Below are positions 53,572 to 63,028 of a stretch of DNA of 64,000 nt, in pieces. Position 1 is the stretch's first letter. Every line of letters begins with the position of its first letter. The position numbers and the translations under genes were made by a program. This DNA is from Lachnospiraceae bacterium (GTDB lineage Bacteria > Bacillota > Clostridia > Lachnospirales > Lachnospiraceae). The stretch is from NCBI GenBank assembly GCA_015057835.1, contig SVDL01000002.1, positions 26,103 to 90,102 on the forward strand, in the 5' to 3' direction. The notes under the pieces were generated by a model that was not told the DNA's origin, ran no database searches, and worked only from the letters and a program-made list of their open reading frames with translations.

Positions 53572-53793
53572 TTAATTGCGGTTGTTTTTGATCACATAAC
53601 CCATTTTCCGCCGGTCAAATACGAGTTCTTTGCCCGTATCGCTCCGCTCCGATAAATGCGCGCGAATATCATCGATATCCCGCTGGATCGTTCTCGATCC
53701 GACCTGAAAGCGCTGCGCCTCCTCGTTTTTTATCAGTGTTCTGCCTTCCAGCAGCCGGTCATACATACTTAAGATTCGTTCTGCCTTTGCCAT
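53572..53793 (-). CDS. 73-aa stand-alone winged HTH (resembles the N-terminal HTH of WYL regulators)
   Basis: RILSMYDRL...EAQRFQVGSRTIQRDIDDIR...GY; RBS GGGGGAAAG. Confidence 0.75.
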   Translation of the reverse strand: MAKAERILSMYDRLLEGRTLIKNEEAQRFQVGSRTIQRDIDDIRAHLSERSDTGKELVFDRRKMGYVIKNNRN

Positions 53794-54138
53794 TTCTCTT
53801 TCCCCCGTATACTGGTGTAATGTCAATAGATGTCTATCTGTGGGTAAAGACACGCCGCGGACTGATAAGGTTCAAAAAAGTAAAAAGAAATTGCATCAGA
53901 TTTCAAAGTAAAAAATTCCCAAAACAATACATTGTGAAACCCAAAACTTCCGGAGTTTTCCAACATCTTTTACTCTATCAGCAAGGGATGACACTATTTG
54001 TCTATCACTTTTCATAAACCTCATTTTCCGCGGATTTCTTCCCAAAAAAGAGAAAATCAGGCCGGCGTCCTGTGGTATACTTTTTTGTGAGGAGAGACGG
54101 TATTTGCCGGGAAAGACAGCATTGCCGCGCGTGAAAAA

Positions 54139-55083
54139 ATGGATACCAGAGTACAGAAAATATGCAGCGAAATCGGTACCGTCATCATCGGCAAGGATGA
54201 GATCATCCGCCGGGTCCTGATGGCATTTTTAAGTGAGGGGCACATTCTCCTGGAAGACGTGCCCGGGACGGGGAAAACGACACTGGCCATGACGGCAGCG
54301 AAAGTGCTGGGACTCGACAGCCGGAGAGTGCAGTTCAATTCCGATACGATGCCCTCGGACATCATCGGTTTCTCCGTCTATGACCATGAGAGAAAAGCGC
54401 TGGTGTATCAGGAAGGCGCGATCATGACGAATCTGCTTCTCGCGGACGAGATCAACCGGACGTCCAGCAAGACGCAGTCCGCGCTGCTCGAGGCAATGCA
54501 GGAGCGCCGGGTCACCGTTGACGGAAATACCTACGCCCTCCCGACCCCGTTCATCGTCATCGCGACCCAGAATCCGGCGGGCTCCGCGGGCACGCAAATG
54601 CTTCCGAACGCCCAGCTGGACCGCTTCCTCGTCCGGCTCGCCATGGGCTACCCGAGCCGGGAGAGCCAGATCGATATTATGAAGAACCGCCAGACCGCAG
54701 ATCCGCTGGACGCCTGTTCGGCGGTTGTCAGCCATGAAGAATTCATGGAAATGGTGAAGGCTGTCCGGCAGATTCATGTGAGCGACCGCATTTACGAATA
54801 CATTACGGATCTTGTGGAAAAGACGCGCCTGAACCCCTATGTGGAGCTGGGCGTGAGTCCCCGCGGCGGCATCGCGGTGTGCCGGATGGCGAAAGCGGCG
54901 GCATTTGTCAACGGAAGAGATTATGTGACGCCGGCGGACGTCCGGGAAATTTTCACGGATGTCTGCGCGCACCGTCTGATCCTCTCCCCGCAGGCAAGAC
55001 TCCACGAGCAGCGCGCGGAAGCGATCCTCGGGGGCGTGCTCCGGCAGGTCAAGAGCCCGGACGTGGCGGAACTTTCTTTGTAG
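54139..55083 (+). CDS. MoxR-family AAA+ ATPase
   Basis: GHILLEDVPGTGKT, LLADEINR, QSALLEAMQE, ATQNP and QLDRF motifs. Confidence 0.95.
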   Translation: MDTRVQKICSEIGTVIIGKDEIIRRVLMAFLSEGHILLEDVPGTGKTTLAMTAAKVLGLDSRRVQFNSDTMPSDIIGFSVYDHERKALVYQEGAIMTNLLLADEINRTSSKTQSALLEAMQERRVTVDGNTYALPTPFIVIATQNPAGSAGTQMLPNAQLDRFLVRLAMGYPSRESQIDIMKNRQTADPLDACSAVVSHEEFMEMVKAVRQIHVSDRIYEYITDLVEKTRLNPYVELGVSPRGGIAVCRMAKAAAFVNGRDYVTPADVREIFTDVCAHRLILSPQARLHEQRAEAILGGVLRQVKSPDVAELSL

Positions 55084-56287: not shown

Positions 56288-58723
56288 GTGAGGAAACCCC
56301 GATCCATGAGCAGCGTGAAACTCCAATTTCAGAATAGAGCCGCGGTCTCTTTCCAGGAGATCGTTCTTGCCATGCTCGCCGCCGCGTTGTGCACGGCGGG
56401 TGCGGCAGCGGCGCTGGTTCCGGTCTTCCCGCATATTCCGGGAAGCTGGGGCATCTACGCTCTGATCGGCGCAGTACTCACGGCGGCATTCTGTTTCCTG
56501 CTCTATATGCCTGTCGGCAGAAGATTGACGCTCATCGTCAGCGGAGCCGTTCTGCTGATTTTTGCCGTTCGTTTTCGCGCTTTCCGCAATGGAATGCTTG
56601 TGCTCGGCAATGATTTTCAGGAATTCCTGACCGGCCGCACAGGGCGGATCCACCTCTATTTCAGAACACAGGGCAATGCAGGCTCGATATTGGTGCCGGC
56701 GCTCTATCTGATCCTGATTTCCATCATTAGCGCGACCTCGCAGCGCCGCGGAAAAAGATTCCCGATGATCCTCCTCGCGCTCTCCGCGGTTGCCATGATC
56801 TTCGGATTTCCCGTTTCGCCATGGAGTGTTCTGCTCCTCGCCGCAGCGGCTGTTATAGGTGTGCAGAATCCAAATAGCTTCACCATCCGATCCCCGCGGC
56901 GCGGATTCCTGTCCGCCCTCATCCCGGCGGCGTTCGCCCTCGCGGCAGTCGGCATCCTGTTTTTTATCGGTTATCTTGTCGCGGGAACAGAGGAATTCCG
57001 GACCGCCGGCGCGGTGGACGGGATCCATCGGAAGATCCACGAGTTCCGCTATGAACGGGGCGGCAGGATCGCCATGCCGGAAGGGGATCTTCGTAGCTAT
57101 GAGCCTCCGGAAAATGAAACCGACCCCCTGCTCACGATCAAAATGAGCCATCCGGAGAAGCTCTATCTCCGCGGCTTTACCGCAGAAGTATTTGAAAATG
57201 ACATCTGGCGCAGCTGTGACAGCGACGCATATATCGAAAATGCTCCCCTTTTCTACACGCTCCATGAAAATGCATTCTACGGCCAGAAAATGATCGCCTC
57301 CGCCGCGGAAGCCGCCGGATGGGAAGGGGCTTCATCGGACAGCGCCTCACCGGAAAAACCTTCACCGGAAAAAGATTCATCGGAAAAACCTTCATCGGAT
57401 CATGCTTTATCAGAAAAAGCAACTCCGGGCGAAGACGCAGACCAATCAGCTGTCATCACAATAAAAAATGAAAACATCTGCCGGAAATACCGGTTCCTGC
57501 CGTATGCCATGAAAGAGCAGGATCTGTTGGATCCGCTGGCGATCGGAGATGCAGGTGCGCTGACGGAACATTCCGCCGCGGATCCGGACACTACCGAGAT
57601 CCAGTATCTTCCCGGCAGCATCCCGGAGTGGTATGAAATCGGGCTCGCACTGGTGTCCGATGCCGAAGACACTGCCGGCGCCTCCGACGTCACCACCCCG
57701 TCAGACGGTCCCGCCGGAGCCGGGGCCGATTCCGCCGCAGCCGGAGGCGAATCCGCGGGCAGCATCTATGCTCCGGCATCCGCATTTCAGTATCTCCGCC
57801 TTGAACAGGCCTATTATGACAGTGTTCTTAAACAGGACCGCCAGCTGCCGCCCGACGCGGCTTCCGAATGCGCCGCGCTGTTCGGTGAGGAACCGAAGGA
57901 GAGAAAGCTCTCCGACATCCTGGCCCTCGTGCACGAAACGCTGGAAAATTCAAAATATGAAGATACCTACCACTACGCCTCCGCGGCGGCGCTCATGCTC
58001 CGCTATCTCGGCGTGCCCGCGCGGTACGTGGAGGGTTTCCTGCTGACTGCGGAGGAAGCCGCGGAGATCGGGCCGGAGGAAGAAGCCGCGCTGACCGCCG
58101 CAAATACCCACGCCTGGGCAGAATTTTATCTCCGCGGCATTGGCTGGATCCCCTTCGAGGCGACGCCCGGATACAGGGATAACGAAGAAATTTCCCGCAT
58201 TGCGATCCTGGTGGAGAAGTCCAGGAACGCGTCCGGAGAAGCCCCGATATTTGCGCAGACGGAGATCGTGTATACCTCCGGCATTTACGATACGGCGGCT
58301 CCTTATGGGACAGCGGGGAAAATGCATTTCCGCTGGAAATGGTGGTTCTGGCTTATTCCTGCGGGAGCGGCAGCGGAAGTGATGCTGGTATGGATCATTT
58401 TCGAGATCAATGAGCGCCGCAGGCAGTATAAAAAGGCGATGGCAACGATCCGCGCCGCCAGAGAGGAGGGCCGGTTCCCGGACGCGGTCGCCCTCGAATA
58501 CGCCTACGCCCGAAGGCTCATGAAGGAGGCGGACATTCAGGATCCGCCGGGGCTCGCGAGGATGCAGCGTCTCAACGAGGAGGCGGTCTTCAGCGATCAC
58601 GCACTTACGGAGGAAAATGCCCGCGAGGCGGAAGCATTTACCCAAAATATCATCACGGAATGTAAGCGGAAATGGTCTCTTAGGGAGCGGCTGTACCACC
58701 GCTGGGTCAACGGGATCATCTGA
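56288..58723 (+). CDS. Multi-TM transglutaminase-like protein lacking the catalytic Cys
   Basis: YLRGF, HYASAAALMLRYLGVPARYVEGF, HAWAE and WIPFEATPG motifs; Thr at the expected Cys position; C-terminal TM helix. Confidence 0.85.
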   Translation: MRKPRSMSSVKLQFQNRAAVSFQEIVLAMLAAALCTAGAAAALVPVFPHIPGSWGIYALIGAVLTAAFCFLLYMPVGRRLTLIVSGAVLLIFAVRFRAFRNGMLVLGNDFQEFLTGRTGRIHLYFRTQGNAGSILVPALYLILISIISATSQRRGKRFPMILLALSAVAMIFGFPVSPWSVLLLAAAAVIGVQNPNSFTIRSPRRGFLSALIPAAFALAAVGILFFIGYLVAGTEEFRTAGAVDGIHRKIHEFRYERGGRIAMPEGDLRSYEPPENETDPLLTIKMSHPEKLYLRGFTAEVFENDIWRSCDSDAYIENAPLFYTLHENAFYGQKMIASAAEAAGWEGASSDSASPEKPSPEKDSSEKPSSDHALSEKATPGEDADQSAVITIKNENICRKYRFLPYAMKEQDLLDPLAIGDAGALTEHSAADPDTTEIQYLPGSIPEWYEIGLALVSDAEDTAGASDVTTPSDGPAGAGADSAAAGGESAGSIYAPASAFQYLRLEQAYYDSVLKQDRQLPPDAASECAALFGEEPKERKLSDILALVHETLENSKYEDTYHYASAAALMLRYLGVPARYVEGFLLTAEEAAEIGPEEEAALTAANTHAWAEFYLRGIGWIPFEATPGYRDNEEISRIAILVEKSRNASGEAPIFAQTEIVYTSGIYDTAAPYGTAGKMHFRWKWWFWLIPAGAAAEVMLVWIIFEINERRRQYKKAMATIRAAREEGRFPDAVALEYAYARRLMKEADIQDPPGLARMQRLNEEAVFSDHALTEENAREAEAFTQNIITECKRKWSLRERLYHRWVNGII
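57332..57421 (+). repeat. Six in-frame copies of a 15-bp unit (SxEKx-like) inside the transglutaminase-like gene
   Basis: TCATCGGACAGCGCC TCACCGGAAAAACCT TCACCGGAAAAAGAT TCATCGGAAAAACCT TCATCGGATCATGCT TTATCAGAAAAAGCA. Confidence 0.8.
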
Positions 58724-58786: not shown

Positions 58787-61513
58787 ATGACAGAACAGGA
58801 TCGCGCAAACATCATAAAGCTGGCCGAAAATGCCAGAGCGGGAGACACCGAAGCCTTTGAACAGCTGTACCGGCGGACTGCGCCTTCTCTGCGCAGTGTC
58901 TGCGCGCGCTATTTCGGAAATGCATATGATATTGACGAGGCGCTGCAGGAGACCTATGTCCGCATTTACCGGAGTCTTGGGCAGCTCGGCACGGCGGAGG
59001 CATTTTTTACATGGAGCCGCACGATCGCGCAGAACACCTGCCTGAACATGATCCGGAGCAGAAATCTGGTCAGCGCGCATGAGACATTTGCCGGCGTGTT
59101 CCCGGGAGAGGATCCGGAGGAGGAAAATGACATCTCCGCCGCCGAATACCGCAAAGAATGGAATCCCGAGGCCGCGGCGGAAAATGAGATGAAGGCCCGG
59201 ATCCTGCAGGATATCCTGAATTCCGTCTCCGATGTGCAGCGGAGCTGTATCCTTCTCTGGGCGGAGGGGTACACGTATCAGAATATCGCGCAGCGCCTCG
59301 GTATGCCCGCCGGCAGCGTCAAAAGTACGGTTCATTATACGAAGAAAAAGATTACCGGCTATATTCTGAAGCTCGAAAAAGAGCAGGGCATCTCCCTGCA
59401 CAGCATGGCGCCGATTCCGTATTTCCTGTGGCTGCTTGAAAATGATCCGGAAAATGGCTCCGCGGCCGGCAGCGCAGCTGCAGCGGCCGGTCTGTCTGCA
59501 GGGGAATTTTCTGTCGCCGATCTGGCAGGTCTCACTGCGGCGATGGAAGAACTGTCTGGATTTGGAGCGGGCGCCGGAGCCGGCGTGATGGCCGGGGATG
59601 CGTTGACTGGCGCAGGCAGCATGCTTGCCGGTGGTGCTCTGACCGGTGCAGGCGGCATGATGGCCGGCGAAGCTCTGACCGGCGCCTTAGGATCTGCCCC
59701 TTCCCACGCCCGTCCCGCCTTCCTCGCGGCGGCTGTCCTGTTTCTTGCTCTGCTTCTGCCGGCGGGAAGTACCCTTGCCGCGTCCATGACGGAGCGCGTC
59801 GCGCCGCAGGAAGCCGCCGTGCTCGCGGAAGCAGTCCATGAATTTCAGCCGTCCAATCTCGTCTCCGGCGGCAGCGCCAGTGAGTCGGACCGGACGTCCG
59901 GTATCGGGGCGGAGAGCGGCAGCAGCGAGACCATTCAGTCGAATGGGGCTGCCGCGACCGCAGAAGTGGCAGCTTACGGGGGACAGAGCACATCGGATGA
60001 TCATACGGCAGCGAAGAAACGGCCGGCAGGAAGTCTACATTCTCGGGAAGGATCGCACCCGGAAGAAGGAAAAGGCAGTCTCTGGCACCGGATGGCGGGG
60101 GTATTTTCCCCGTTGGGACAGGAGGATGCTGACCGCACCGGAGAGAATTTACAGAATAAGAATGCCCCGGAAAACACAGAAGGGACAGGAAACGAAAACA
60201 GTGACAGCACAGTGGGTGACACTGCGGATGCCGCAGATGATAAAAACGGAGAAAATCCGTCGGATCCGGAGAAAACGCCCTCCGGCACTCCGGAAAAACG
60301 TCCCGCAGACGACAAATCCGGTGAAAATACGGCGCAGACATCTCCGGATCCTACACAGAACAGCAGAAGATCCGATGAGGATCTGACAGATCCCTCCGGC
60401 AGCGGCGATGGCCGTGATCAGGCAAATTCCGCCGGAAATACCGGAAATACTCCCTCCGGCAGTTCTTCCGGCCGCCCGCAGGGGGATTCCTCCGGAAGCA
60501 GCACGCCGGGCGGCAGCGGATCCGGAAATGATTCCTCCGGAGGATCATCCTCCCGTCAGGAGTCAGGCGATCCTTCCTCCGGGACGCCGGGTATGAATGA
60601 CAGCACGGAGAATCCGGTGATCACGGAAGCCCCGGCGCCGGGACCGACGGCGTCGCCGACAGCAGCGCCGTCTCCGACGGGAGAATCGACACCATCACCG
60701 ACTGCCGTGCCGACCCCAGCCCCGACCGCCGTGCCGACGTCCACGCCGGAACCCACACAGACGCCGGAGCCGACGCCGGAAGAGATTCCGATCCAGTCCT
60801 TCCGCTTCACGGTTCCGGACCTGGATTTTGTGCTGAATGCCTATGAACCCATACAGATCCCCTATGAGATCTATCCGCCGAACGCGACGGAAAAAGTAGT
60901 CTGGTCCAACGGGGAAAATGATTTCGTGGAAATCGACGAAAACGGCGTAGCCACCTTTTATCCCCCGGAGCCCGGCAGAGAGCAGTCGGCAACCATGTGC
61001 GTCGCCTCCACCAGCGCCGGCACATTCCAGCTTTGGAGCCTGCTCTCCTTTAACAGCACGTCGGTCCCCTACGGCCCGTGCGGCGATAATGCTTCCTGGC
61101 GGTTGGATGGCAATACACTGGTCATTTCCGGCAGCGGGGTTGTAGATTGGCAGGAACCGGATGCGCCGATCTCACAGGCCCGCTGGATCCGCTACGGCAG
61201 TCAGATCTATTCCATTCAGATCGAGGAGGGGATCACGGATATCGGCGGATTCTGGCATTTGCAGCATGTAAATGAAGTCGTCATTCCGGAAGGCGTCACA
61301 AGGATCGACAGAAACGCTTTCCTTATGTCGAAGGTCACTAAGTTCTATTTGCCGAAAAGCCTGGAAATACTGGAGGCTGCCGCGCTGAACAACGGCTACG
61401 CACTGCCGATCGATATTGTTTACGCAGGTTCGGAAGAGGACTGGAACAATGTCTATGACGGGGATCCGGATGGGTGGCGGTGGATGATTCAGTCGATCAC
61501 GTATCTCGAGTAG
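58787..61513 (+). CDS. ECF sigma factor fused to a TM helix, Ser/Gly/Thr/Pro linker, Ig-like domain and BspA-like LRRs
   Basis: Sigma2 (GDTEAFEQLY...DIDEALQETYVRIY...WSRTIAQNTCLN), sigma4 (YTYQNIAQRLGMPAGSVKS), TM near aa 311-328, PT-rich linker, YPPNATEKVVWS, CGDNASWRLDGNTLVISGSG and VVIPEGVTRIDRNAF. Confidence 0.85.
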   Translation: MTEQDRANIIKLAENARAGDTEAFEQLYRRTAPSLRSVCARYFGNAYDIDEALQETYVRIYRSLGQLGTAEAFFTWSRTIAQNTCLNMIRSRNLVSAHETFAGVFPGEDPEEENDISAAEYRKEWNPEAAAENEMKARILQDILNSVSDVQRSCILLWAEGYTYQNIAQRLGMPAGSVKSTVHYTKKKITGYILKLEKEQGISLHSMAPIPYFLWLLENDPENGSAAGSAAAAAGLSAGEFSVADLAGLTAAMEELSGFGAGAGAGVMAGDALTGAGSMLAGGALTGAGGMMAGEALTGALGSAPSHARPAFLAAAVLFLALLLPAGSTLAASMTERVAPQEAAVLAEAVHEFQPSNLVSGGSASESDRTSGIGAESGSSETIQSNGAAATAEVAAYGGQSTSDDHTAAKKRPAGSLHSREGSHPEEGKGSLWHRMAGVFSPLGQEDADRTGENLQNKNAPENTEGTGNENSDSTVGDTADAADDKNGENPSDPEKTPSGTPEKRPADDKSGENTAQTSPDPTQNSRRSDEDLTDPSGSGDGRDQANSAGNTGNTPSGSSSGRPQGDSSGSSTPGGSGSGNDSSGGSSSRQESGDPSSGTPGMNDSTENPVITEAPAPGPTASPTAAPSPTGESTPSPTAVPTPAPTAVPTSTPEPTQTPEPTPEEIPIQSFRFTVPDLDFVLNAYEPIQIPYEIYPPNATEKVVWSNGENDFVEIDENGVATFYPPEPGREQSATMCVASTSAGTFQLWSLLSFNSTSVPYGPCGDNASWRLDGNTLVISGSGVVDWQEPDAPISQARWIRYGSQIYSIQIEEGITDIGGFWHLQHVNEVVIPEGVTRIDRNAFLMSKVTKFYLPKSLEILEAAALNNGYALPIDIVYAGSEEDWNNVYDGDPDGWRWMIQSITYLE

Positions 61514-61537: not shown

Positions 61538-61616
61538 CTTTTTGCTGCATGAAATCTTGAAAAAGGATTCTCTCTCAGACGTTTTCTGCTGCATGAAAGC
61601 TTGTAAATGGATTCTC
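61538..61616. repeat. Imperfect 44-bp tandem duplication
   Basis: TGCTGCATGAAA(T/G)CTTG...GGATTCTC at 61543 and 61587. Confidence 0.75.
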
Positions 61617-61642: not shown

Positions 61643-63028
61643 ATGGCTATAGTTGGTGCGTTTATGGTGCCGCATCCGCCGATGATCGTACCGGAAGTCG
61701 GCCGGGGCGGTGAAAAGCAGATCGAAAAGACAGTCCGTGCGTATGAGCGGGTGGCCTCGGAAGTCGCCGCGCTGCGCCCTGAGACAATCATCATCACAAG
61801 TCCGCATACGGTGATGTATACGGATTATTTCCATATTTCTCCGGGAAGATCGGCGACAGGCTCTTTTTCCCAGTTCCGGGCGAGGGATGTCCGCTTCACG
61901 GAATCTTATGACACGGAGCTGATCCGCGCCGTGAAAGAAATTGCGCAGGAAAATGCATTTCCGGCCGGAACACAGGGAGAGCGCGACGCGGCGCTGGACC
62001 ACGGCGTGATGGTGCCGCTCTATTTCATTGAGAAGCTTTACAAAGATTTCAAACTGGTGAGGATCGGTCTCTCCGGATATCCGCTCACCATGCATTATCA
62101 GCTCGGGCAGATTCTGCAGCAGGCAGTACAGGAGACCGGCCGGCGGGTGGTTTTGATCGCGAGCGGAGATCTGTCCCATAAACTGCAGTCCTACGGACCG
62201 TATGGATTTGCCCCGGAGGGTCCGCAGTATGATAAGCGGATCATGGACGTTATGGGGAGAGGTGCATTTGGCGAGCTGTTTGAATTTGACGAGACATTCT
62301 GTGACAGGGCGGCGGAATGCGGCCACCGGTCTTTCTGTATTATGGCCGGCGCATTTGACGGACAGGCGGTCCGTGCGGAAATGCTGTCCCATGAAGATGT
62401 TACCGGCGTCGGATACGGGATCTGCACGTTTTACCCGCAGGGGGAGGACGAGACAAGATATTTCCTGAAAGAGTACCTGAAAAAAGCAAAAGCCAGTCTG
62501 ACTAAGAAGCGCCTGGAAGAAGATGACTATGTCCGTTTTGCGCGGAAGTGCGTCGAGTCATATGTGCTCGGAGACAGGATCACCCGGGTCCCGGAAGGCC
62601 TTCCGGAAGAGATGCTGATCCGCGCCGCGGGCGTATTTGTCTCGATCCATGAACACGGCCGGCTCCGCGGATGCATCGGCACGATCCTCCCGGTGCGCCG
62701 CTGCATCGCGGAAGAGATCATGTCGAACGCCGTCAGCGCCTGCGCGAAAGACCCGAGATTTGATCCGGTCCGCCCGGACGAACTGCCGTTCCTTGACATC
62801 AACGTCGACGTCCTCACCTCGCCGGAACCGATCGAAAGCAAAGCGGAACTGGATGTGAAAAAGTATGGCGTCATCGTATCCTGCGGCGCCCGCCGCGGCC
62901 TTCTCCTGCCGGATCTAGACGGCGTGGACACCGTGGACGACCAGGTCGATATCGCGATGCGGAAGGGCGGCATTTCTCCGACGGAGAACTATTCTTTGGA
63001 TCGGTTTGAGGTGATCCGGCACCGGTGA
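61643..63028 (+). CDS. amrA: AmmeMemoRadiSam system protein A: LigB/Memo-like domain fused to AMMECR1
   Basis: VPHPPMIVPEVG, SPH, LDHG and ASGDLSH; C-terminal GVFVSI...LRGCIGT, DPRF and GLLLPDL motifs. Confidence 0.88.
   Translation: MAIVGAFMVPHPPMIVPEVGRGGEKQIEKTVRAYERVASEVAALRPETIIITSPHTVMYTDYFHISPGRSATGSFSQFRARDVRFTESYDTELIRAVKEIAQENAFPAGTQGERDAALDHGVMVPLYFIEKLYKDFKLVRIGLSGYPLTMHYQLGQILQQAVQETGRRVVLIASGDLSHKLQSYGPYGFAPEGPQYDKRIMDVMGRGAFGELFEFDETFCDRAAECGHRSFCIMAGAFDGQAVRAEMLSHEDVTGVGYGICTFYPQGEDETRYFLKEYLKKAKASLTKKRLEEDDYVRFARKCVESYVLGDRITRVPEGLPEEMLIRAAGVFVSIHEHGRLRGCIGTILPVRRCIAEEIMSNAVSACAKDPRFDPVRPDELPFLDINVDVLTSPEPIESKAELDVKKYGVIVSCGARRGLLLPDLDGVDTVDDQVDIAMRKGGISPTENYSLDRFEVIRHR

Follow-up and report, generated by a model that had tools for sequence, protein, structure and literature searches.

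A predicted membrane-tethered one-component ECF sigma factor encoded beside a MoxR-DUF58-TgpA-like gene trio in Lachnospiraceae

We analysed a 64,000-nucleotide (nt) stretch of DNA from a Lachnospiraceae bacterium (assembly GCA_015057835.1, contig SVDL01000002.1, positions 26,103 to 90,102), hereafter called the window. The open reading frame (ORF) at 58787-61513 fuses an extracytoplasmic function (ECF) sigma factor to a transmembrane (TM) helix, a long stalk, an immunoglobulin-like (Ig-like) domain and leucine-rich repeats (LRRs). Judged by identity and architecture, the product is very probably a one-component ECF sigma factor that is tethered to the membrane. The gene closes a small conserved cluster in which genes for a MoxR-type ATPase, a DUF58 protein and a TgpA-like membrane protein (hereafter the trio) are flanked by a divergent helix-turn-helix (HTH) gene. 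The ORF begins with an ATG codon, preceded by a GAGGA Shine-Dalgarno sequence 5 nt upstream. The parts of the fusion are listed below, with window coordinates and strand.

58787..61513, +: sigma-TM-stalk-Ig-LRR fusion gene, 908 aa, one uninterrupted ORF
58865..59353, +: ECF sigma core with sigma2 (aa 27-93), linker and sigma4 (aa 138-189); from Pfam, NCBIfam and AlphaFold2 (AF2)
59375..59437, +: post-sigma4 motif EKEQGISLHSMAPIPYFLWLL, aa 197-217; 85% pairwise identity
59438..59716, +: Ala/Gly-rich cytoplasmic linker (A 28%, G 23%); predicted local distance difference test (pLDDT) score <50
59720..59776, +: predicted single TM helix, aa 312-330, with invariant Pro325; Kyte-Doolittle 2.21
59786..59881, +: conserved extracytoplasmic juxtamembrane segment with invariant R337, P340, V350, F353, S356 and G361
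59882..60784, +: disordered S/G/T/D-rich stalk ending in a Pro/Thr-rich (PT-rich) linker; from composition and low identity
60785..61051, +: Ig-like (Big_2-like) domain; all-beta, high-confidence AF2 model
61052..61510, +: short capped BspA-type LRR_5 domain of about three repeats; from profile, homologues and AF2

Architecture and conservation of the fusion

The N-terminal part contains a complete ECF sigma core. Pfam Sigma70_r2 matches residues 27-93 with 45.8 bits (cut-off 24) and Sigma70_r4_2 matches residues 138-189 with 33.5 bits (cut-off 25.7). NCBIfam model TIGR02937 (sigma70-ECF) agrees, with 84.6 bits against a cut-off of 42.9. By Pfam, the protein has sigma2 and sigma4 only, as expected of ECF (group 4) factors, with neither sigma3 (r3) nor sigma1.1 (r1). 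Every NCBIfam equivalog or subfamily model that could provide a finer class scored far under its cut-off (top score 74.5 versus 206). In the AF2 model of residues 1-345, pLDDT is above 93 in sigma2 and 88-97 in sigma4. The best PDB matches found with Foldseek are all ECF sigma factors (sigmaE, AlgU, SigW, SigK and SigH), and the sigma2 model superposes on region 2 of E. coli sigmaE at 1.4 Å. Regions 2.2-2.4 and 4.2 contain residues that are invariant among the orthologues described below.

Directly after sigma4 comes a 21-residue motif, EKEQG(I)RLHGMAPxPYFLWLL, which is the most conserved segment of the whole protein. In the AF2 model, its first half prolongs the last helix of sigma4, and the PxPYFLWLL part is a short helix of low confidence. 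The Ala/Gly-rich linker that follows contains a 36-bp tandem repeat (2.8 copies, 59586-59685, found with Tandem Repeats Finder, TRF) encoding GAGxMxAGxALT units. This repeat is lineage-specific and the orthologues do not have it. A Pfam search of residues 186-368, in the fusion protein and in three relatives, gave no match of any kind at E<=10, and the stretch from sigma4 to the TM helix thus has no detectable anti-sigma domain (ZAS, FecR, RskA, RsgI_N or DUF4179). Hydropathy analysis gives exactly one qualifying segment, residues 312-330, which is predicted to cross the membrane once. It occupies the same aligned place in every orthologue, and Pro325 stands in an LLxPAG context.

The region following the TM helix (residues 334-666) is rich in S, G, T, A, P, D and E and aligns with many gaps between orthologues. 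A short 12/24-bp PT repeat is found at 60687-60738 (TRF). The AF2 model of residues 660-908 is well defined (pLDDT 90.7, pTM 0.84) and shows an Ig-like domain made of beta strands only, to which a short capped LRR domain is attached. Its top PDB match in Foldseek is 4h09, an LRR_5 protein of Eubacterium ventriosum, and the N-terminal Ig part matches Big_2-CBM56 (7quz) and many Ig domains. With the fusion protein alone, Pfam LRR_5 (PF13306) gives 24.2 bits, under the cut-off of 27.7. The same profile matches six of the seven family members (best E 3.3e-9), and a homologue search with residues 660-908 yields LRR_5 proteins. On the basis of these profile matches and of the modelled fold, the C-terminus is assigned to the BspA-type LRR (LRR_5) class. 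LRR_5 domains related to that of the fusion are also carried by two Ser/Thr kinases, P0019 (1170 aa) and P0022 (860 aa). Thus, the same sensor module appears to be reused on another class of membrane signal transducers.

A preliminary description of the window, made from the letters alone, had read the gene as a one-component ECF sigma factor. It placed sigma2 and sigma4 within residues ~1-190, followed by an Ala/Gly linker with three ~12-residue repeats, a TM helix, ~330 residues of disordered S/G/T/D and PT stalk, an Ig-like domain and C-terminal BspA-like LRRs. Each of these parts is recovered here, the stalk by its composition and its low identity between orthologues, and the predicted layout of an intact sigma core fused to a single TM helix and a surface module agrees with the one-component reading. 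The term "adhesin-like", also used in that description, is not retained. The ectodomain consists of only one Ig-like domain and a capped LRR_5 unit of about three repeats, and a role as a sensor fits it better because the same module is found on Ser/Thr kinases.

The full order of parts is kept without interruption in six orthologues (P0002-P0007 and L027), which have 840-867 residues and an identity of 39-47%. They come from different samples and assemblers. Conservation tracks the domains: pairwise identity between orthologues is 57% in sigma2, 66% in sigma4, 85% in the motif, 49% in the TM helix, 38% in the juxtamembrane segment, 38% in the Ig-like domain and 43% in the LRR domain, against 25% in the Ala/Gly linker and 22% in the stalk. 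A mis-assembly or a lost stop codon, which the preliminary description had named as the outcome that would overturn its reading, is not what we find, because six orthologues from independent assemblies retain the fusion. Suspicion could arise from the source genome, a fragmented metagenome-assembled genome (MAG; 182 contigs, 91% complete), and from orthologue P0006 (L036:2419-4900), which carries a frameshift near its C-terminus. The unbroken architecture elsewhere, the domain-wise conservation and the start codon with its good ribosome-binding site make it almost certain that the fusion is neither an artefact of assembly nor the result of a lost stop codon or of pseudogene decay. In P0006 itself, the last ~150 residues (the LRR part) continue in another frame, which reflects either an assembly error or a decaying copy.

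The family is rare. Its named relatives are Lachnospiraceae and Eubacterium MAGs, and the 400 other genera sampled from the family, a genome of the same genus included, yielded no true orthologue. In that genome (G267), an insertion or empty-site comparison places the flanking genes, 43-58% identical, on different contigs. A profile search with the full-length alignment against 1.84 billion representative proteins returned just five full-length representatives of the family, at the top of a list otherwise dominated by giant LRR_5 repeat proteins. A metagenome scan added one further orthologous locus only (L027), and a word-based homologue search with residues 1-345 gave nothing beyond the six orthologues and P0010.

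The conserved gene cluster and its candidate promoters

The fusion gene is preceded by the trio on the same strand and by the divergent HTH gene. The corresponding features are as follows.

53572..53793, -: small HTH gene, 73 aa, divergent from the operon; weak Pfam HTH_11 match and PADLOC match to a WYL-regulator HTH
53848..53874, -: candidate ECF-type promoter TGAAC-N16-GTGTCT; the HTH start codon follows ~55 nt downstream
54073..54081, +: extended -10 element TGGTATACT, likely a promoter of housekeeping type for the MoxR operon; consensus match only
54139..55083, +: MoxR-type AAA+ ATPase, 314 aa; Pfam AAA_3 184 bits, AAA_lid_2 84 bits
55091..56281, +: DUF58 protein, 396 aa, anchored N-terminally in the membrane (TM aa 17-35); Pfam DUF58 29.3 bits, cut-off 23.4
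56288..58723, +: TgpA-like polytopic membrane protein, 811 aa; Pfam Transglut_core 55.2 bits, TgpA_N 29 bits

Adjacent genes for MoxR AAA_3, DUF58 and membrane Transglut_core proteins thus form an operon of a known type. In each of the six loci whose flanks are long enough, the TgpA-like gene (41-46% identical between loci, tblastn) adjoins the sigma fusion. In L035 it is convergent and downstream of the fusion, so the adjacency has survived a rearrangement. MoxR (75-79% identical) and the DUF58 protein (47%) are also recovered in the orthologous loci by tblastn. The HTH gene, single-copy in the genome, occupies the same position in L001 and L004/L005 with 55-68% identity. HTH, MoxR and DUF58 genes are present in all three lineages for which upstream sequence is available, and there the sigma fusion is the last gene of the cluster. 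Genes further downstream vary among loci. In the window, two direct ~30-nt copies (TGCTGCATGAAAnCTTGnAAAnGGATTCTC, 61543-61616) fill the spacer after the sigma stop codon, and the next gene (61643-63028) encodes a LigB/Memo-AMMECR1 fusion.

The TgpA-like protein has about seven TM segments, an acidic 458-residue domain and a K/R-rich tail past the last TM segment. From hydropathy and the position of this tail, the acidic domain is predicted to lie outside the membrane, on the same side as the juxtamembrane segment of the sigma fusion, while MoxR and the bulk of the DUF58 protein would be cytoplasmic. The nucleophilic cysteine of Transglut_core (window 57950-58170) is replaced by threonine in the window and by serine or aspartate in relatives. 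The His and the acidic residue (Glu) are kept. The cysteine is lost in L067, L069, L070 and L071 as well, that is, in the whole clostridial clade with or without a sigma fusion. This pattern points to a pseudo-enzyme or to an unusual nucleophile.

TgpA-like genes occur in 134 of the 401 sampled genera of the family. In the nearest trios without a sigma fusion, the position of the latter is taken by large cell-surface proteins of 1570-1660 residues, in which cadherin-like and PQQ_2 domains are joined by SLH, Big_2 or Big_3. They follow the trio directly in two loci (L067:9175-14046 and L069:2665-7647) and come after a 408-residue DUF4430 gene in a third (L071:1741-6465). The sigma fusion therefore occupies the slot of a surface protein. 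Neither the HTH gene nor the candidate promoter motif is present at these sigma-less trios. Ahead of the L067 trio stand a prenyltransferase-like alpha/alpha-toroid gene, a 645-residue gene without annotation and a CbiQ-like gene, and genes of similar size are found in this place in L068 and L069. A reading of the MoxR module as a defence system was considered and dropped, having no PADLOC support. Altogether, a functional coupling of the sigma fusion to the trio is probable.

The intergenic region between the HTH and MoxR genes was compared in three lineages. They have no 7-mer in common, yet all three contain AGACAC-N16-GTTCA with identical spacing, and none of 2000 shuffled sets (0/2000) gave any common 6+N+5 motif. 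Read towards the HTH gene, this element is TGAAC-N16-GTGTCT. Each of the three genomes searched (G000, the source genome, G401 and G402) contains it exactly once, always ahead of the HTH gene. A -35 element containing AAC and a -10 element containing GTC, separated by 16 nt, are the typical form of an ECF promoter. From its sequence and position, the element is a plausible candidate for the cognate promoter of the sigma fusion, an assignment that we make with some reserve. No autoregulatory ECF promoter was found ahead of MoxR; the extended -10 element stands there instead, with TGnTATA(C/G)T at matching alignment positions in the window, L001 and L004.

The same intergenic region contains GTCTATC and GACAC-N4-TGTC inverted-repeat elements (53832-53838 and 53990-54006), which recur in L001. 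L001 also shares the 17-mer GACACTATTTGTCTATC with the window, and the intergenic region of L004 has a perfect palindrome, ATCTGTACAGAT. The inverted repeats are probably the operator of the small HTH protein.

Related sigma-TM fusions and known systems

Beyond the orthologues, related sigma-TM fusions were found in 52 of the 401 sampled genera, as open frames of ~450-880 residues. All 17 examined have the post-sigma4 motif, in the form LEKxGxKLYxxAPxPFLLxLL. The motif is shared with fusions of the zinc-ribbon class although the sigma domains are only 26-31% identical. A Pfam scan of 16 related fusions detected Sigma70_r2 and r4 in every one and zinc ribbons in five. Their ectodomains are mostly unannotated, apart from one YARHG and one FG-GAP domain. 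Every member of this wider superfamily has a long low-complexity linker, the sequence of which is not conserved.

The source genome itself encodes a second fusion, a 702-residue paralogue (C101:14896-17004 in G000; locus L031:1309-3417). It consists of an N-terminal zinc ribbon, the ECF core, the motif, a long Ala/Gly linker, one TM helix, a PT linker and an unannotated C-terminal domain that differs from that of the fusion in the window. No MoxR trio is found near it. Other fusions of this kind (for instance L007 from Anaerostipes and L008 from Blautia) likewise share the ECF core, the motif, the Ala/Gly linker and the single TM helix with the protein of the window. They differ from it in that many have an N-terminal zinc ribbon, the ectodomains are others and the surroundings contain no MoxR trio. 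Only five ORFs of the source genome, a 91%-complete MAG, contain Sigma70_r2: one sigA-like (422-aa frame), the two TM fusions, one of ~200 residues and a 149-residue fragment. No sporulation sigma set is apparent among them. Because two of only five such ORFs are fusions, these proteins are suggested to be the working alternative sigma factors of the genome.

The nearest known kind is the ECF52 type, together with IutY; the layout is alike and the defining anti-sigma domains are absent here. In ECF52, represented by SCO4117 of Streptomyces coelicolor, proteolytic excision of the sigma factor has been proposed, not demonstrated (PMC5826349, PMC8999054). As in the protein described here, one polypeptide combines an N-terminal ECF sigma factor, a TM helix, a proline-rich extracytoplasmic spacer and a C-terminal binding module. 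ECF52 proteins are restricted to Actinobacteria, carry a zinc-finger (zf-HC2/ZAS) anti-sigma domain between the sigma factor and the TM helix, and bear a carbohydrate-binding module. In contrast, the present fusion has no ZAS domain. It has instead the 21-residue motif and the Ala/Gly linker, an Ig plus LRR_5 sensor, a Lachnospiraceae-type host from another phylum and a link to the trio. IutY (ECF243) of Pseudomonas putida is a membrane-bound sigma fusion released by Prc and then RseP (PMC8999054), and it gives an experimental precedent for release by regulated intramembrane proteolysis. IutY has its own features, namely a FecR-type anti-sigma/sensor part, a TonB-dependent receptor partner and a Gram-negative envelope; Pfam gave no FecR-family match in the fusion protein of the window.

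Two other systems resemble the present one in part. In cellulolytic clostridia, RsgI is a separate anti-sigma factor that binds sigmaI via its RsgI_N domain. In the SigI/RsgI systems (for sigmaI, see PMC10575876), as in the fusion, a single TM helix is combined with a juxtamembrane part that is conserved, a PT-rich linker and a C-terminal binding module that can be exchanged, and the Clostridia background is common to both. The difference is that, in our case, the sigma factor itself is fused, is of the ECF type and has no RsgI_N. The bifidobacterial PFNA cluster (pkb2-fn3-moxR-duf58-tgm; PMC8430577, PMC12067865) and other TgpA-type operons resemble the fusion locus in associating a trio of MoxR (MRP subfamily), DUF58 and membrane transglutaminase-like proteins with membrane signalling and a surface protein. 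PFNA uses a Ser/Thr kinase as transducer and a separate FN3 surface protein, whereas in the fusion locus a single sigma fusion combines both roles and the cysteine is missing from the transglutaminase-like core. The literature searched contained neither the post-sigma4 motif nor an operon partnership of sigma factor and trio.

How the tethered sigma factor may be activated

The explanation that best accounts for the whole is a membrane-tethered one-component ECF sigma factor that is freed by proteolysis upon ligand binding and acts on the promoter of the HTH gene. We favour it with moderate confidence. In this scheme, the Ig-LRR tip would bind an external ligand at or beyond the cell wall, and the signal would be relayed via the juxtamembrane segment, which would probably touch the outward-facing domain of the TgpA-like protein. 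Regulated proteolysis would then free the sigma factor, with a site-1 cut outside the membrane followed by cleavage at the Pro-kinked TM helix by a single M50 site-2 protease. The freed sigma factor would guide RNA polymerase to the unique TGAAC-N16-GTGTCT promoter ahead of the HTH gene, and the HTH protein could in turn feed back on, or control, the operon. The genome has one Peptidase_M50 ORF (C157:11344-12576). With its type II single-pass TM helix, the helix-destabilising Pro325 and a site-2 protease encoded in the genome, the protein has the features of a substrate of intramembrane proteolysis. Pro325 and the M50 protease are permissive for such a mechanism and are not proof of it. By analogy with IutY and ECF52, activation by proteolytic release, taken as a separate claim, falls slightly short of being probable. 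More speculatively, the motif could be an autoinhibitory element or a release handle, and the Ala/Gly tract could limit degradation after cleavage.

Several observations weigh against this scheme. The promoter reading is tentative, since the candidate element shares its -10-like half with GTCT/GACAC inverted repeats, which may be where the HTH protein binds as its operator. For the MoxR operon, a housekeeping-type promoter with an extended -10 element appears to be in use and not an ECF-type one. A TgpA-like gene never adjoins the related sigma-TM fusions of other genera; the trio is thus not generally needed for such sigma factors. AF2 does not dock the motif confidently on the sigma core (pLDDT 58-64). 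Finally, the TgpA-like protein was considered as the Cys protease for site-1 cleavage, a role for which it is unlikely because the nucleophile is missing.

It is also conceivable that the sigma factor works uncut and tethered, like ToxR, CadC or TcpP. The ~90-residue Ala/Gly linker would allow RNA polymerase and DNA to be recruited at the membrane, and ligand binding would alter the oligomeric state or the exposure of the sigma factor. Such a mode would agree with the presence of a long low-complexity linker throughout the wider superfamily, with the lack of an anti-sigma domain to be destroyed and with the lack of a conserved signal-peptidase-type site after the TM helix. To our knowledge, however, there is no precedent for a sigma factor that acts while bound to the membrane. 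The characterised hybrid IutY requires proteolytic release (PMC8999054), and the invariant helix-breaking proline of the TM helix, together with the conserved juxtamembrane segment, is what would be expected of a substrate of regulated intramembrane proteolysis. We regard tethered action as rather improbable. Similarly low weight is given to the idea that the MoxR-DUF58-TgpA-like module is an activator or a trans-acting anti-sigma factor, which would hold or mask the sigma factor until MoxR, in a remodelling step driven by ATP, sets it free or uncovers it. Sigma factors are not known to be activated in this way. No orthologous locus, the rearranged one included, departs from strict adjacency, and the sigma fusion sits in the slot that large surface proteins occupy in related trios. 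By the predicted topology, MoxR and DUF58 would be cytoplasmic and the TgpA-like domain would lie outside, beside the juxtamembrane segment, and in bifidobacterial PFNA the partners of the same trio are an FN3 surface protein and a membrane Ser/Thr kinase (PMC8430577). The argument is however one of gene neighbourhood, related fusions with the same motif have no trio nearby, and maturation or folding of the ectodomain may be all that the trio does, in line with what is proposed for the surface proteins paired with it.

A stronger form of the same idea, which we consider equally unlikely, is that the trio constitutes an ATP-driven transmembrane machine gating the tethered sigma factor. The outer pseudo-transglutaminase would read the state of the juxtamembrane segment or of the surface, and MoxR and DUF58 would unmask or extract the sigma factor using the motif as a handle. 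A last proposal sees the protein as a surface or adhesin-type client of the trio, the sigma-like domain being a degenerate cytoplasmic anchor or a decoy. The surface-protein slot and the common occurrence of LRR_5 proteins at the cell surface would suit it. Against it, conservation is highest in the sigma domains and the motif, regions 2.2-2.4 and 4.2 contain invariant residues, the ectodomain is small, and two of the only five Sigma70_r2 ORFs of the genome are such fusions. We therefore hold this proposal to be very unlikely. The ligand-triggered release of the sigma factor towards the HTH promoter remains our preferred explanation.

Sensor-fused sigma factors are known from Actinobacteria and Proteobacteria. 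Members of Lachnospiraceae, a major family of the gut and rumen, have a fusion lineage of their own, marked by a short invariant motif and not by an anti-sigma domain. One rare branch of this lineage is tied to a MoxR-DUF58-TgpA-like module. If the trio did prove to be a gating machine, sigma activation would proceed in a manner unlike anti-sigma factor destruction, and the widespread trio would have its first concrete client. With five genes in ~7.9 kb and one candidate promoter, the system is compact, and it could address both the release of a tethered sigma factor and the effect of the trio on its surface-protein partners. Since two of the five sigma-70-family ORFs are of this type, sigma-TM fusions may be the main route by which this organism senses its surroundings.

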